This document shows, piece by piece, positions 2,358 to 52,904 of a stretch of DNA of 64,000 nucleotides (position 1 is the first letter of the stretch; the number at the start of each line of letters is the position of its first letter). Where the stretch lies: positions 2,278-66,277 of the forward strand of contig JAGOTD010000005.1 of assembly GCA_018061945.1 (NCBI GenBank), given 5' to 3'. The notes beneath the pieces are model-generated. The model was not told where the DNA came from and did not search any database. It saw only the letters and a list, made by a program, of their open reading frames with translations. The position numbers were made by a program, and so were the translations under genes. Source of the stretch: Candidatus Peribacteraceae bacterium (lineage in GTDB: Bacteria > Patescibacteriota > Gracilibacteria > Peribacterales > Peribacteraceae).

Positions 2358-3224
2358 ATGCGGCATGGTTTTCTTCTCATCGACAAGCCCGTTGGGCCGA
2401 CAAGCCACGATATAGTGGCGCAGCTTCGGCGTCTGTTGAGTGAGCAAAAGATGGGACACTTGGGCACACTCGATCCGCAGGCGAGCGGACTTTTGGTTGT
2501 GGCAGTTGGCAGCAAAGCGCTCAAGGTCGTCGATTTGTTTAAGACACTCACGAAAGAATACATCGCAGAAGTGCATTTGGGAGCCGAGAGCACAACCTAC
2601 GATTTCGAAGGCAGTATTACACAAACACAACTCAAGCCAGGTTGGCAGCAGCCAGCCGATAGCTCGCGTATTCAAACACTCATTGCCGAAAGATTCCTCG
2701 GGAAAATAGAGCAGCGTCCGCCGCAGTTTTCCGCGCTCAACATAAGTGGCAAGCGCGCGTACGAATTGGCACGCGAAGGCAAGCAGGTAGAAATGCCGCT
2801 GCGCGAAGTGCAGATTTCGCAATGCGATATTCTGTCGTACAACTATCCAAAATTATCGCTACAAGTTGCGTGTAGTTCTGGCACCTATATACGTTCGCTC
2901 GCGCACGATATTGGTATCGCTCTTCGGTGTGGCGGTTATCTCTCCGCTCTTCGTCGGACGAAAGTAGGGAAGTGGAAAATCGAGAAAGCCATTGCTCCCA
3001 AAGATGCTGTGTGGACATCGGTTGTTCCTCTCAAAGAAATTTTGTCTGATTTTCCTCGGCGCGATTTATCGGCAGACGAATGGAAAGAAATCGACTTTGG
3101 TCGCACGATTAAAGGTGATGTTGGAACTGATTCACTTATCGGTTGGGTCGATGATCTGCCAGTTGTGATCTTGGAAGCGAGCAGCAAGCAAGCAGGAATG
3201 CTGAAGGCGAGGAAGGTGTTGTAG
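2358..3224 (+). CDS. truB: tRNA pseudouridine(55) synthase TruB
   Basis: The N-terminus GFLLIDKPVGPTSHDIV and the catalytic motif GHLGTLDPQASGLL are both present. Length is 288 aa. Confidence 0.9.
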   Translation: MRHGFLLIDKPVGPTSHDIVAQLRRLLSEQKMGHLGTLDPQASGLLVVAVGSKALKVVDLFKTLTKEYIAEVHLGAESTTYDFEGSITQTQLKPGWQQPADSSRIQTLIAERFLGKIEQRPPQFSALNISGKRAYELAREGKQVEMPLREVQISQCDILSYNYPKLSLQVACSSGTYIRSLAHDIGIALRCGGYLSALRRTKVGKWKIEKAIAPKDAVWTSVVPLKEILSDFPRRDLSADEWKEIDFGRTIKGDVGTDSLIGWVDDLPVVILEASSKQAGMLKARKVL

Positions 3225-3227
3225 AAA

Positions 3228-3266
3228 GGACTCAGATGACTCAAAAGACTCAGAGGACTCAAAGGA
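3228..3266. repeat. Word array, family B (GACTCA 9-nt words), single arm
   Basis: ggactcagat gactcaaaa gactcagag gactcaaag ga: four tandem degenerate 9-mers. Confidence 0.85.
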
Positions 3267-3370
3267 TAGTAGATGCAAATATAAAAAGGGAGCGGGATGC
3301 TTCCCGCGGTCGACTTCTTATGCAAAGAAGTCTTGTCTTATCAGCTATTGATTGAAGACATGTTATGTAA

Positions 3371-21679: not shown

Positions 21680-21756
21680 TGGTGGGCAATACAAGATTCG
21701 AACTTGTGACCTCCACAATGTCAATGTGGCGCTCTAACCAGCTGAGCTAATTGCCC
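21680..21756 (-). tRNA. tRNA-Val (anticodon GAC)
   Basis: Manual cloverleaf. Acceptor is GGGCAAT/ATTGCCC. D arm is GCTC-AGCTGGTTA-GAGC. Anticodon stem is CCACA/TGTGG with loop TTGACAT. T arm is ACAAG-TTCGAAT-CTTGT. CCA is encoded. Confidence 0.9.
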
Positions 21757-21775
21757 GAGATGTGAATGATAACGG

Positions 21776-21806
21776 TCTAACCATCGGCCTAGGCCGATAA
21801 TTGCCC
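21776..21806 (-). pseudogene. tRNA-Val(GAC) 5' fragment with a palindrome-substituted D arm
   Basis: The minus strand reads GGGCAATTA-TCGGCCTAGGCCGA-TGGTTAGA. It is preceded by a second copy of the 13-nt upstream motif TATCATTCACATC (21810-22; first copy 21759-71). Confidence 0.8.
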
Positions 21807-21924
21807 GACGATGTGAATGATACTCTTTACTATGAGCCGAAGCTGCAAATTGCCCATTTTTGCCTGCAAAGAGTACGGAAAACGACTTAGGTGGTCAATG
21901 TCAAAGAGGATAATACGCGCGCCA

Positions 21925-51882: not shown

Positions 51883-51959
51883 GAACGTAGAATGTAGAAC
51901 GATAGAACGTAGGGATTTTTTTGTATTCTATGTTCTACATTCTCAGTTCTACGTTCTTC
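51883..51959. repeat. Word-array palindrome, family D (GTAGAAC words)
   Basis: gaacgtagaatgtagaacgatagaacgtagg - gattttttt - gtattctatgttctacattctcagttctacgttc. Confidence 0.85.
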
Positions 51960-52192
51960 AACAGGCCTTCTTTTTTATCTTTCGTCCACTTCTTCACTTC
52001 CGCTTCACGTTTTCTGGCTTCCGATAATGTGTCGAATTCTTCCGAGTAGATTATTTTGATAGGGGAGCGGCTGCGCGTGTATTTGGCGCCTGTGCCGGCG
52101 TTATGCTTTTCCTCGCGTTCTTGCAGATTGAGGCACGTTCCGGCATAGAGCGAGCAGTCGGCGCAGCGGGCGAGGTAGAAGAAGTGGGGCAT
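51935..52192 (-). CDS. GIY-YIG nuclease-family small protein
   Basis: FFYLARCADCSLYAGTC...HNAGTGAKYTRSR.PIKIIYSEEF...AEVKKW matches the stand-alone GIY-YIG pattern. The last codons are supplied by the family D repeat. Confidence 0.8.
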   Translation of the reverse strand: MPHFFYLARCADCSLYAGTCLNLQEREEKHNAGTGAKYTRSRSPIKIIYSEEFDTLSEARKREAEVKKWTKDKKEGLLKNVELRM

Positions 52193-52423
52193 ACGACTAT
52201 AGTACACGTTTACTATTGATCATATGGTGCATGCACGAATGCTTTGTGCTGTTTTTCCAGCATGCCTTTCGAGTGAAGTTATTTGTTAGCTAAAGCCACG
52301 TAAAGCTCGCGTGATGTTTTCATTGCCAGATCTAGTTGGCTGCGCTACGCGTGGCGCAGCCTTTGTGGAAGTATTGCCCCACTTCGCTAAAGCTACGCGG
52401 GGCACACTCCGCTGCGCGAAGTG

Positions 52424-52507
52424 TGGTGGGCGCCAAGGGATTCGAACCCCTGACCCTCTCGGTGTAAACGAGATACTCTAACCATCGGCCTAGGCCGATA
52501 GGCGCCC
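52424..52507 (-). pseudogene. Variant tRNA-Val(TAC) copy with a palindrome-substituted D arm
   Basis: It is identical to the intact copy from the anticodon arm to CCA. Positions 10-16 (GCTCAGC) are replaced by TCGGCCTAGGCCGA and GAGCA becomes GAGTA. The D stem cannot form, giving 84 nt. Confidence 0.75.
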
Positions 52508-52744
52508 TATCACTTGTTTCAAGAAAACCCTCCCTTTACCAGTTTTGAAGAATTTTTCTTTCAGTATTGCTTCTTTTTTAGTTCCAAATTCTTCTTTGTA
52601 TACAAGCTTCCATGGCCCTCTTTTTGATGTATAGGATGCAAAACTATCATCTGTATTATGCTGCAGTAAACGATGTTCAATATTTTCTGAGTAGCCTTTA
52701 TAAAGAATGCCCTCGGCATTCTGAAGAACATACACGTAATGCAT
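52490..52744 (-). CDS. GIY-YIG nuclease-family small protein
   Basis: MHYVYVLQNAEGILYKGYSENIEHRLLQHN...GPWKLVYKEEF...A...EK.FKT is a GIY-YIG pattern. Start set at the ATG at 52744, because the track start would translate the intact tRNA. The stop codon lies inside the palindrome of the variant tRNA. Confidence 0.8.
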   Translation of the reverse strand: MHYVYVLQNAEGILYKGYSENIEHRLLQHNTDDSFASYTSKRGPWKLVYKEEFGTKKEAILKEKFFKTGKGRVFLKQVIGRLSA

Positions 52745-52766
52745 ATCGTGAGTGAAAGATATGAAA

Positions 52767-52843
52767 TGGTGGGCGCCAAGGGATTCGAACCCCTGACCCT
52801 CTCGGTGTAAACGAGATGCTCTAACCAGCTGAGCTAGGCGCCC
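52767..52843 (-). tRNA. tRNA-Val (anticodon TAC)
   Basis: Manual cloverleaf. Acceptor is GGGCGCC/GGCGCCC. D arm is GCTC-AGCTGGTTA-GAGC. Anticodon stem is TCTCG/CGAGA with loop TTTACAC. T arm is AGGGG-TTCGAAT-CCCTT. CCA is encoded. Confidence 0.9.
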
Positions 52844-52864
52844 TATAGATGACAGTGATTTTAA

Positions 52865-52904
52865 TGGTGGGGCTCTAACCATCGGCCTGGGCCGATAGGC
52901 GCCC
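52865..52904 (-). pseudogene. tRNA-Val(TAC) 5' fragment with the palindrome, fused to CCACCA
   Basis: The minus strand reads GGGCGCCTA-TCGGCCCAGGCCGA-TGGTTAGAGCC-CCACCA. It lies 21 nt upstream of the intact tRNA. Confidence 0.75.

Follow-up and report, generated by a model that had tools for sequence, protein, structure and literature searches.

What kind of event leaves an intact bacterial tRNA gene accompanied by two altered copies of itself, each carrying a palindrome, and by a gene for a very small nuclease? This question is raised by the tRNA-Val(TAC) locus in a 64,000-nucleotide stretch of Candidatus Peribacteraceae DNA (hereafter the window). The original prediction placed three copies of the tRNA and a GIY-YIG ORF on the minus strand of this locus, and all of these elements were confirmed, in the order 40-nt fragment, intact tRNA, 84-aa ORF and full-length variant tRNA:

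52904-52865, minus strand: upstream fragment, GGGCGCCTA + TCGGCCCAGGCCGA + TGGTTAGAGCC + CCACCA
52882-52895, no strand assigned: palindrome copy TCGGCC-CA-GGCCGA in the fragment, 16 nt including the flanking A and T
52844-52864, minus strand: spacer or leader of 21 nt, from the fragment to the intact tRNA
52767-52843, minus strand: intact tRNA-Val(TAC), called by ARAGORN, Rfam score 68.4 bits
52745-52766, minus strand: spacer of 22 nt, from the tRNA 3' end to the ORF start
52490-52744, minus strand: GIY-YIG ORF, 84 aa, Pfam GIY-YIG E = 4e-13
52424-52507, minus strand: full-length variant tRNA, consisting of nt 1-9, the palindrome and nt 17-76
52485-52498, no strand assigned: palindrome copy TCGGCC-TA-GGCCGA in the variant, its central TAG being the ORF stop codon

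In both the 40-nt fragment and the variant tRNA, GCTCAGC is swapped for TCGGCC[T/C]AGGCCGA. Counting the A and the T on either side, the palindrome measures 16 nt (ATCGGCC-TA-GGCCGAT) and takes the place of the inner 7 nt of a native 9-nt palindrome, AGCT-C-AGCT, leaving the dyad axis unchanged. The fragment, composed of tRNA-Val(TAC) nt 1-9, the CA-centred palindrome, nt 17-27 and the 3' CCACCA, is a pseudo-copy with the palindrome and an internal deletion. The intact tRNA, whose D arm bears AGCTCAGCT, is the sole functional copy at the locus. The variant had been described as identical to it from the anticodon arm to the CCA end; near-complete identity was borne out, with one further difference among 61 positions, a C to T at tRNA nt 26 (window 52475). 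Scored as a tRNA, the variant did not behave as a normal one: neither ARAGORN nor the Rfam tRNA model (RF00005) called it, and its best clan match was tmRNA, at 16.4 bits versus a tRNA gathering score of 29. When folded, it formed acceptor, anticodon and T arms plus a palindrome hairpin (-40 kcal/mol, z = -3.5). The native 3' flank comes after the variant, a 48-nt direct repeat (85% identical) spans both palindrome regions, and no recombinase ORF was found at the locus.

The same substitution had been predicted at the tRNA-Val(GAC) locus, where a third palindrome was indeed located at 21797-21784, upstream of the GAC tRNA:

21807-21821, minus strand: leader copy A (atcattcacatcgtc), upstream of the GAC fragment
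21774-21806, minus strand: fragment upstream of tRNA-Val(GAC), consisting of nt 1-9 (GGGCAATTA), the palindrome, TGGTTAGA and then CC
21784-21797, no strand assigned: third palindrome copy TCGGCC-TA-GGCCGA, upstream of tRNA-Val(GAC)
21680-21756, minus strand: intact tRNA-Val(GAC), D arm as in tRNA-Val(TAC), TAGCTCAGCTGGTTAGAGC

A leader of 14-15 nt is present twice at this locus, at 21821-21807 and at 21770-21757, the latter being the leader of the intact tRNA. Stable folds were obtained for the upstream fragments (-20 and -16 kcal/mol, with z about -2.5). With up to 2 mismatches allowed, the window holds three palindrome sites, all tied to tRNA genes; counted on both strands, these amount to 6 matches versus 0.49 expected, a count reached in none of 100 shuffles.

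The ORF matched the GIY-YIG domain (Pfam PF01541, E = 4.2e-13, 49.8 bits versus a cut-off of 22.6) over residues 1-68 of 84, and its product is identical to NCBI MBP9773956.1 from Candidatus Peribacteraceae. An alignment of 22 family members, including the window ORF, revealed Y5, Y15, G17, R25, H29 and E63 as invariant. The nearest solved structures were those of UPF0213 proteins (1ywl, E = 2e-15; 1zg2, E = 1.2e-14), followed by SLX1 chains (E = 3e-6 to 1.5e-4), whereas I-TevI was matched merely at E = 0.0098; judged by sequence similarity, the ORF belongs to the UPF0213/SLX1-like clade of GIY-YIG nucleases. No separate DNA-binding domain was found in the 84 residues, and there was no further Pfam or NCBIfam match. 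Since searches of NCBIfam and PHROGs returned no match and that of PADLOC a marginal one (E = 0.007), the ORF is not linked to known defence systems. The coding sequence runs into the variant tRNA, whose nt 1-9 plus palindrome encode the final five codons (GRLSA) and the stop, and this TAG (52492-52490) forms the centre of the palindrome. A word-index protein search returned one near-identical cluster only; the family became visible through an exhaustive search of representative proteins, and genes of the UPF0213 type annotated as "GIY-YIG nuclease family protein" comprise 4,137 clusters at 50% identity.

Comparison of orthologous tRNA-Val loci, which the original prediction had proposed, separated occupied from empty sites. 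The TAC locus is occupied in the window and in four independent assemblies (L001, L002, L099 and L121), all of which contain the same upstream fragment; this recurrence rules out a misassembly. In two related Peribacteraceae, L202 and L203, whose L21 proteins are 72% and 68% identical to that of the window, the syntenic tRNA-Val(TAC) stands alone, with no ORF, fragment or variant, and in L202 the sequence 3' of this tRNA (TCCTTCGCGCAGCGAAGGATGCC) corresponds to that following the variant tRNA in the window. The ORF thus shows, among relatives and at a fixed tRNA-Val(TAC) site, the presence/absence polymorphism by which a free-standing homing endonuclease gene is recognised. In the MAG CALMES01, the palindrome was present at four loci, Arg(GCG), Ile(GAT), Val(TAC) and Arg(TCG), with the ORF intact at the Val locus and frameshifted at the Ile locus. 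The spacers also show resemblances: the 21-nt spacer resembles sequence upstream of the L001 fragment (AATCAC..CATC), and the 22-nt spacer starts with TTTCATA, as do those after tRNA-Arg(GCG) in L087 and tRNA-Ile in L095.

A scan of 185,579 species genomes for the palindrome yielded 66 pattern hits, nine of them loci with a tRNA D-loop context, in Peregrinibacteria only. AGCTCAGCT was common to all nine palindrome-associated tRNA genes retrieved from Peribacteria, which represent seven tRNA species, and TAGCTCAGCTGG was likewise present in 9/9. Non-associated tRNAs deviating in the TAGCTCAGCTGG motif were Lys(CTT), Pro(GGG), Ala(GGC), Gln(TTG) and the empty L202 Val(TAC), five genes that do not share AGCTCAGCT either; in L203 the motif is present and the site is empty. 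The empty sites and this motif association are solid observations, and they uphold the proposal of a recurrent, sequence-specific event as opposed to random decay. The nine nt 5' of each palindrome always match the local tRNA. The 3' ends of the fragments, by contrast, are highly variable between loci and species, abutting the tRNA directly or being followed first by 5-30 nt of filler or duplicated leader. Permissive tblastn detected no ORF remnants beside most ORF-less fragments, the one weakly significant remnant lying upstream of the fragment in L001. The bare 16-mer occurred in 52 viral contigs, chance-like and mostly in high-GC phage DNA; as none of the 52 was in a tRNA-like context, the cassette is not visibly phage-borne.

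The arrangement extends far beyond the window genome. A metagenome scan with a six-sequence ORF alignment retrieved 78 loci with ORF relatives 37-51% identical, and an intact same-strand tRNA lay within 150 nt of the ORF in 61 of them; a tRNA and/or a GC-rich hairpin was found in the flanks of 76. Perfect GC-rich hairpins reached 4.45 per kb in the ORF flanks versus 0.39-0.45 per kb elsewhere, an 11-fold difference. In the pseudo-copies, the D, anticodon or T arm is replaced or interrupted by a perfect hairpin of ~15 nt (TNCGCC-nnn-GGCGNA), placed where the whole D or anticodon arm would be or at TTC|GAA of the T loop; hairpin aside, their segments are 98.5% identical to the local tRNA. Among 97 NNNGCCNNNGGCNNN sites in the flanks, 82 had all three outer pairs complementary, and the loop ends were complementary (T.A) in only 19 of these 82. 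The GCC-nnn-GGC core is near-invariant across phyla with paired variation of the outer stem, and a divergent ORF clade carries another hairpin, so that hairpin type tracks ORF clade. The ORF is always oriented as the tRNA, 1-116 nt after or 0-44 nt before it. On the ORF-facing side, the hairpin is always followed by only about 6-19 nt of tRNA sequence, after which homology ends; a single ORF clade includes loci with the hairpin upstream of the ORF and loci with it downstream. In one case a pseudo-tRNA-Arg that bears a hairpin is taken for tRNA-Ala(TGC). The window palindrome is the local form of this conserved hairpin module. The architecture, its family-wide recurrence and the module itself are firmly established, and ORF relatives of several bacterial phyla share the layout. 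The suspected link to a D-arm-targeting mobile element or nuclease gains support from this layout in many lineages, together with the empty sites and the sharing of AGCTCAGCT.

We give about an even chance to the reading that the locus is a selfish, homing-endonuclease-like cassette, by which the target tRNA is duplicated and a palindrome belonging to the cassette is placed in the dead copies as a mark. The ancestral state would be a single tRNA-Val(TAC) gene, and the occupied state several direct-orientation copies, of which the intact one would keep the cell alive. The only cassette protein would be the 84-aa nuclease, a catalytic core alone, whose ORF, 22 nt downstream of the intact tRNA, is probably co-transcribed from the tRNA promoter and runs into a second full-length copy, which joins the native downstream flank and in which the cassette palindrome has taken the place of the core of the D-arm AGCT-C-AGCT; a third copy, truncated and palindrome-bearing, would have come to lie upstream of the intact tRNA. 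The nuclease would break or nick tRNA genes carrying AGCTCAGCT, the presumed target, and repair from the occupied allele would copy the cassette in. With the target duplicated, tRNA function would not be lost, and the palindrome would both mark and disable the redundant copies, since neither the tRNA fold nor the presumed cleavage site would survive in them; as the original prediction suggested, it might make a copy uncleavable. The array could then be expanded by recombination of intact with variant copies, as in L001, or the ORF could be deleted, leaving as fossils palindrome-bearing fragments upstream of an intact tRNA, as at tRNA-Val(GAC). Cleavage, its site, homing and a protective role of the palindrome are steps that we infer.

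Several features constrain this cassette model. Sequence-specific cutting is not expected of a protein of 84 aa that lacks a DNA-binding domain, unless it works in oligomeric form or responds to the structure of the DNA. AGCTCAGCT is replaced in the pseudo-copies and kept in the intact tRNA adjoining the ORF; because that tRNA retains the presumed target, simple homing-endonuclease immunity seems not to apply. The invariable match of the nine nt 5' of the palindrome to the local tRNA makes target duplication look like an integral part of insertion, and on moves to new tRNA species such duplication is not accounted for by ordinary double-strand-break homing. The empty site in L203, which has the motif, and the failure to detect ORF remnants beside most ORF-less fragments also count against the model. 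Moreover, a hairpin conserved across phyla probably serves some purpose beyond that of a mere site-destroying filler.

Such a function is central to a possible, although unlikely, alternative in which the palindrome is not a scar but the binding or cleavage site of the nuclease, and the cassette a hairpin-directed unit that excises and integrates like a transposon or an integron cassette. A recombination site had been among the options of the original prediction. The palindrome regions, over which the 48-nt direct repeat extends, are direct repeats around the intact tRNA and the ORF; through recombination or cleavage at them, a circle containing the only functional tRNA would be released or integrated, making the cassette hard to lose. 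The near-invariant core with its pairwise outer variation, the correspondence of hairpin type with ORF clade and the structure specificity of the SLX1-related nucleases all agree with this idea; the two layouts within one ORF clade are expected if crossover of the circle can take place to the left or to the right of the hairpin. The short tRNA stretch past the ORF-side hairpins also recalls the geometry of IS200/IS605, whose cleavage sites lie 10-19 nt from subterminal hairpins. However, no circular junction or excision product was seen, a naive tRNA lacks the hairpin that recombination would require, the hairpin is one-sided at many loci and a recombinase is absent. The mostly asymmetric loop further argues against a simple dyad-symmetric double-stranded DNA site, and a fully symmetric one is unsupported. 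More speculatively, and with a low likelihood of being right, the hairpins might serve as cognate nucleic-acid handles of the 80-95-aa GIY-YIG nuclease, with tRNA-derived flanking arms giving target specificity. This would constitute a minimal hairpin-directed mobile system specialised on tRNA genes in Bacteroidota, Patescibacteria and other phyla, its homology arms built from the target and, in some layouts, the sole functional tRNA inside the mobile unit.

It is rather improbable that the pseudo-tRNAs are instead untranslated regions of the nuclease mRNA, in which a compact tRNA-like fold, unusable as tRNA, stabilises the message or limits it via RNase P cleavage. The constant co-orientation and proximity of ORF and tRNA imply co-transcription, the hairpin exactly replaces a whole arm at several loci while keeping a cloverleaf-like outline, the window variant folds stably and the ORF stop codon lies inside the hairpin. 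Nevertheless, many hairpins are pure insertions or leave half-stems unpaired, ORF-less fragments of variable extent persist, and the combination of a 3-nt loop with a 6-bp stem is more characteristic of hairpins in DNA; nor would an RNA role account for the presence/absence polymorphism, the specificity for the motif or the tandem fragments.

The earlier suggestion that each fragment, and the variant too, is a small tRNA-derived RNA gene in its own right found no support and is very improbable. The stable fragment folds and a weak promoter-like match upstream of the fragment, of a kind expected 2.1 times by chance, are outweighed by 3' extents and fillers that differ greatly between loci and species, by the lack of an Rfam family match and by conservation limited to the palindrome and local tRNA sequence; with such variable 3' ends, the fragments look like DNA-level scars. 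The notion that duplicated tRNA genes have simply decayed, that the palindrome is a generic repeat or that the assembly is at fault can be dismissed almost entirely: the bare 16-mer does arise by chance in high-GC DNA, as in the viral contigs, and contig breaks are frequent at these repeats (L002, L087, L181), but the 14-mer recurs at one fixed position of the tRNA across several genera and seven tRNA species, the window has just three copies, all tRNA-linked, at least five independent assemblies agree, and pseudo-copies match the intact tRNA almost perfectly outside the hairpin.

Other candidates were rejected on specific grounds. Palindromic nucleotide addition at hairpin-capped breaks does not fit arms that are not flank-derived and are conserved across hosts, and simple target-site duplication from staggered cuts does not fit the position of the hairpin, which is within the left duplicate and not at the junction. 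An integrase-type tRNA island (attL/attR) would involve a recombinase ORF, which is missing, and an exact repeat of the tRNA 3' part only, whereas the repeats here take in the 5' end of the tRNA and are broken by the palindrome. A tRNA intron (group I or bulge-helix-bulge) is contradicted by the loss of seven tRNA nt, the 5' strand of the D stem, which splicing could not restore, and no Rfam intron family was matched. Dispersed palindromic repeats (REP, MITE-like) would not be confined to three copies in 64 kb, all in tRNA pseudo-copies, nor would the hairpins of relatives be concentrated 11-fold in ORF/tRNA flanks. A type III toxin-antitoxin array was also considered and rejected.

If the cassette model is true, a nuclease gene that ranks among the smallest known, at about 85 codons and lacking a DNA-binding domain, would be a successful selfish element, colonising the most conserved bacterial genes without destroying them by means of a conserved palindrome module. 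It would also explain the abundance of UPF0213-type GIY-YIG genes, their clustering at tRNA genes and the partial or odd tRNA genes in annotations, such as the pseudo-tRNA-Arg mentioned above. The cassette offers a compact system for studying target recognition by a bare catalytic domain. Some carriers of the ORF family belong to Chitinophagaceae, a family with cultured members, which might permit experiments in culture.

In the literature accessible without subscription, we found no published description of this combination of pseudo-tRNAs, hairpins and a mini-nuclease; nonetheless, several known systems share parts of it. IS200/IS605 and REP/RAYT are hairpin-dependent single-strand DNA elements that use an HUH transposase. 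They resemble the window family in their short conserved hairpins tied to a small nuclease gene and in boundaries about 10-19 nt from the hairpin, but no HUH transposase is present at the window locus, and REPs are dispersed in intergenic DNA whereas the hairpins of the window family occur only in tRNA pseudo-copies. Some homing endonuclease genes insert into an essential gene together with a replacement copy of the displaced part, as does a GIY-YIG ORF in the mitochondrial atp6 of Allomyces. There, too, a partial duplication preserves host gene function and the displaced native part remains as a pseudogene beside the endonuclease ORF. In contrast, the host gene of the window cassette is a tRNA, the duplication can span the whole gene and its leader or trailer, each dead copy contains a conserved palindrome, and arrays and ORF-less fossils are common.

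Single GIY-YIG domains are likewise found in UPF0213 proteins (EF2693, PDB 1ywl; BH0048, PDB 1zg2; E. coli YhbQ type) and in the eukaryotic SLX1 nuclease domain; however, 1ywl and 1zg2 are listed by their depositors as hypothetical proteins with no tRNA-gene link recorded, and SLX1 depends on SLX4, its substrate being branched DNA. Genomic islands and prophages that are integrase-borne and sit at tRNA genes also place a partial tRNA copy beside an intact one upon insertion, but they are kilobases long, rely on a tyrosine integrase and duplicate only the 3' part of the tRNA as an exact att repeat, with no palindrome substitution (PMC9897764). Phage T4 SegB is a free-standing homing endonuclease of the GIY-YIG type whose gene, like the window ORF, lies among tRNA genes. 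The site that SegB recognises includes a motif conserved in tRNA genes, the T-psi-C stem-loop (PMC2330249), and cleavage by SegB leads to preferential inheritance and to tandem, segmental amplification at tRNA loci (PMC2330249; PMC13096335). SegB is a larger, phage-confined protein with a 27-bp site, for which no hairpin-substituted pseudo-tRNAs have been described. The window ORF, by contrast, lacks the DNA-binding domain that gives I-TevI and SegB their long-site specificity; it is a chromosomally encoded catalytic core of 84 aa alone, assigned by sequence to the UPF0213/SLX1-like clade.

Reading the window along the minus strand from 53050 to 52300, we recovered every element, order and coordinate that the original prediction gave for the tRNA-Val(TAC) locus, where a truncated tRNA copy (the fragment) lies upstream of the intact gene and a full-length copy (the variant) lies downstream, with a GIY-YIG open reading frame (the ORF) between intact gene and variant:

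52904-52865, minus strand: 40-nt fragment, GGGCGCCTA-TCGGCCCAGGCCGA-TGGTTAGAGCC-CCACCA
between fragment and intact tRNA, minus strand: spacer, 21 nt
52843-52767, minus strand: intact tRNA-Val(TAC) (ARAGORN; Rfam, 68.4 bits)
between intact tRNA and ORF, minus strand: spacer, 22 nt
52744-52490, minus strand: ORF of 84 codons, GIY-YIG (Pfam E = 4e-13)
52507-52424, minus strand: full-length variant tRNA

The variant carries TCGGCCTAGGCCGA in place of GCTCAGC and was rejected by both ARAGORN and the Rfam tRNA model. Its predicted identity to the intact tRNA through CCA held at 60 of 61 positions from TGGTTAGAG, the exception being a mismatch at 52475. The substituted palindrome (16 nt once the flanking A and T are counted) takes the place of the inner seven bases of the natural D-arm palindrome AGCT-C-AGCT, leaving the axis unchanged. 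The TAG stop of the ORF is the palindrome centre, and the last five codons (GRLSA) thus come from tRNA nt 1-9 and half of the palindrome. At this centre (window 52491-52492), the window has TA, ending the ORF with GRLSA-stop, whereas close relatives (L099 3485-3498; L121) have CA, giving GRLSAQADG-stop, with the D-loop TAG as the stop. Across the 64 kb, the palindrome occurred at three sites, each matched on both strands, yielding six matches against 0.49 expected; none of 100 shuffles attained this number. Upstream of tRNA-Val(GAC) sits the third copy, which bears out the claim that the same substitution recurs at that locus; the 14-15-nt leader is duplicated there too.

The same tRNA-Val(TAC) locus was present in four independent assemblies (L001, L002, L099 and L121) and is thus not an assembly artefact. 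Homologues of the neighbouring L21 protein placed the organism in Candidatus Peribacteraceae (Peregrinibacteria, candidate phyla radiation), and the ORF has the exact sequence of NCBI MBP9773956.1, a protein from a Candidatus Peribacteraceae genome. In the orthologous comparison proposed for this locus, two related Peribacteraceae loci, L203 and L202 (L21 proteins 68% and 72% identical to that of the window, respectively), held a single intact tRNA-Val(TAC) in synteny, with no fragment, variant or ORF homologue beside it. The flank after the L202 tRNA (TCCTTCGCGCAGCGAAGGATGCC) corresponds to the flank after the window variant (CACTTCGCGCAGCGGAGTGTGCC) and not to the sequence following the intact copy; the lone tRNA is thus the ancestral state, and its native 3′ flank now sits behind the variant. 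In L001, from a near-identical strain, a 343-bp unit comprising the tRNA 3′ part, spacer, ORF, tRNA nt 1-9 and palindrome stands in two tandem copies (2559-3322), reflecting either real copy-number variation or repeat collapse or expansion in assembly.

A second, distinct GIY-YIG ORF of 90 aa (Pfam E = 1.9e-15; window 51935-52207, minus strand) lies about 220 nt downstream of the variant, with no palindrome adjoining it. Counterparts occupy the same relative position in L001 and in the empty site L202 (112 aa), making this gene a resident neighbour outside the palindrome cassette. Directly after the variant CCA, a hairpin with an 8-bp stem and a GCA loop, CACTTCGC-GCA-GCGGAGTG (window 52405-52423, minus strand), is kept behind the lone tRNA of L202 as TCCTTCGC-GCA-GCGAAGGA (about 3295-3316), and a further hairpin, GGCTGCGC-N8-GCGCAGCC, follows downstream (window 52338-52361, minus strand). 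Both are probably native tRNA trailer or terminator, in a style resembling the hairpins of the cassette family. Between its lone tRNA-Val and the resident GIY-YIG gene, L202 also holds two copies of a repeat of about 80 nt (..gctgcggctacggatggcgagccatcaagcacagaggatggct..; 3110-3290, minus strand).

Our genome scan took a single genome for each of 185,579 species and looked for the palindrome with a D-loop-like TGG...AGA behind it; exact stems were required, so the scan covers undecayed palindromes. It returned 66 loci, of which 57 are chance matches within coding DNA of high G+C. The nine in a tRNA context came exclusively from Peregrinibacteria or Peribacteria genomes and spanned seven tRNA species, which, with the three window sites, upholds the view of the palindrome as a recurrent, tRNA-linked sequence. 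Its position was constant in copies of Val(TAC), Val(GAC), Val(CAC), Ile(GAT), Arg(GCG), Arg(TCG) and Asp(GTC), and local tRNA sequence always bordered it, nine nucleotides in front and the D-loop behind (e.g. TGGATAGAGT in Arg). Most of the nine loci lack the ORF: in L070, L092, L093, L104 and L119, a single fragment or two in tandem precede an intact tRNA, and in L087, likewise without the ORF, full-length variants follow the intact tRNA, with a 41-nt spacer between. The CALMES01 genome carries at least four palindrome loci. Its ORF at Val(TAC) is intact, and the one at Ile(GAT) (L095 65-324) is a decaying copy that a frameshift splits into two HMM pieces.

Insertion polymorphism exists at the tRNA gene, with several loci per genome and ORFs intact or decayed. 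The association is with a single D-arm motif, and the target is duplicated so that one copy remains intact. All nine retrieved palindrome-associated tRNA genes contained TAGCTCAGCTGG, which was altered in unassociated Lys(CTT), Pro(GGG), Ala(GGC) and Gln(TTG) and in the empty Val(TAC) of L202, and present in empty L203. Two of the ORF-less fragments, in L119 and L092, have G for T at tRNA position 8 (GGACGATGA, GGGCAATGA), immediately ahead of the palindrome. Besides the Peribacteria palindrome in its D arm, a solitary tRNA-Val(CAC)-like pseudo-gene (L086 7689-7826), with no intact tRNA within the 8 kb examined, has one further insertion and two different palindromes, CCGCCATAGGCGG within the anticodon arm and ACACCTACGGTGT within the T loop.

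An exhaustive search grouped relatives of the ORF into 4,137 clusters at 50% identity; the C-termini of many resemble translated hairpins (SA-stop, SAEAD, PPQAD, PPKADG). We annotated 80 metagenome loci, the best 80 of at least 313 matches and hence biased to closer relatives (37-51% identity; G+C 0.29-0.64; 78 with a complete ORF), using ARAGORN, short-word BLAST of the local tRNA and a perfect-hairpin finder. Among these best matches, an intact tRNA, in every case on the same strand as the ORF, lay no more than 150 nt away in 61 of the 78 loci (19 anticodon species; Asn, Gln and Arg commonest), and a tRNA and/or GC-rich hairpin flanked the ORF in 76. The taxon names available for six clusters assign carriers to Chitinophagaceae, Bacteroidales, Patescibacteria, Candidatus Raymondbacteria and Peribacteraceae. 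Perfect GC-rich hairpins were 11-fold denser in flanks (4.45 per kb) than in ORFs or other parts of the loci (0.39-0.45 per kb), and sat within pseudo-copies of the local tRNA whose remainder was 98.5% identical to it (2,814/2,858 nt). The common form has a 6-bp stem and 3-nt loop (consensus T[C/T/G]CGCC-nnn-GGCG[G/A/C]A). All three outer pairs were complementary at 82 of 97 non-redundant NNNGCCNNNGGCNNN flank sites versus 8 of 51 at other places in the loci (chance, 1.6%), indicating that stem pairing is kept despite sequence variation.

Hairpins replaced the entire D arm (L161), the entire anticodon arm (L141, L156, L172, L195) or part of an arm, or were pure insertions, typically two abutting, exactly at the T-loop TTC|GAA. 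Two layouts coexist within a single ORF clade: intact tRNA, ORF and hairpin-bearing copy, as in the window, or hairpin-bearing 5′ part, ORF and intact tRNA. In many loci of the first layout, as in the window, the intact tRNA is also preceded by a truncated fragment with a hairpin; L161 has three in tandem. Towards the ORF, the tRNA sequence continues past the hairpin for only about 6-19 nt, and on the far side the remaining tRNA is complete. The window's 7+2+7 D-arm palindrome is thus one lineage's own form of a general hairpin module. A conserved palindrome module marks every non-functional tRNA copy.

Rfam has no family for the cassette elements, matching only intact tRNAs and one hairpin-bearing pseudo-tRNA that passes as a tRNA. 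In L124 (1742-1818) and L165, a pseudo-tRNA-Arg(ACG) with TCCGCC-TGC-GGCGGA replacing its anticodon arm is called tRNA-Ala(TGC) by ARAGORN and scores 38.3 bits with the Rfam tRNA model (gathering score 29); pseudo-tRNAs of this kind will be annotated as genuine genes. In L181 (nt 1-350), the hairpin-bearing 3′ pseudo-copy (GAGGTGGTTC..GAATCCCTCCTCCCCAACC) and the adjacent intact tRNA-Gln (GTAGGTTCGAATCCTACCGCCCCAAC) differ in T and acceptor stems; here the intact gene may have come with the cassette, the hairpin-bearing copy being the disrupted native gene.

The GIY-YIG catalytic positions are invariant in the family alignment. A profile search of solved structures ranked two UPF0213 proteins first (E = 2e-15 and 1e-14), then SLX1, a structure-specific endonuclease, with I-TevI marginal. 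No second domain was found in the 84-aa product, and phage and defence families gave no convincing match.

We infer that the ORF and its palindrome-bearing tRNA copies form a selfish cassette resembling a free-standing homing endonuclease gene, one that would offset target disruption by target duplication. The nuclease would damage motif-carrying tRNA genes, and repair templated by the occupied allele would copy the cassette into the damaged gene, the palindrome disabling the redundant copy as target and as tRNA. Recombination between intact copy and variant, which have 61 nt in common, would either enlarge the array, as seen in L001, or remove the spacer, the ORF and the palindrome, leaving the upstream fragment beside an intact tRNA. 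The Val(GAC) locus and most loci in Peribacteria are in this expected end-state. Fragments would stack over repeated cycles, as in L070, L092 and L161.

Four points that homing leaves unexplained keep alive an alternative that we consider doubtful, in which the hairpin serves as the site of the nuclease itself, and the unit enclosed by the two hairpin regions moves as a small circle would, by excision and integration. The ORF-adjacent intact tRNA keeps the motif; the 9 nt preceding every palindrome invariably come from the local tRNA, so that insertion itself seems to entail duplication of the target; the 84-aa core offers no obvious route to sequence recognition; and hairpin conservation is too strong for mere filler. 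In the window, the two palindrome-bearing regions form a 48-nt direct repeat, and the unit that they enclose carries the only functional tRNA. The pseudo-tRNA could possibly have an added function at the RNA level, as an untranslated region of the nuclease mRNA, but this leaves the DNA-level pattern unexplained.

In full-text literature outside subscription journals, we found no description of UPF0213-type GIY-YIG genes that sit within duplicated tRNA genes whose arms are substituted by palindromes; the one paper found on prokaryotic tRNA gene fragments concerns integrase att sites. For the homing-like cassette that we favour, T4 SegB is a precedent as a GIY-YIG enzyme with a tRNA-gene target: it recognises a conserved motif in tRNA genes and brings about segmental amplification (PMC2330249, PMC13096335).
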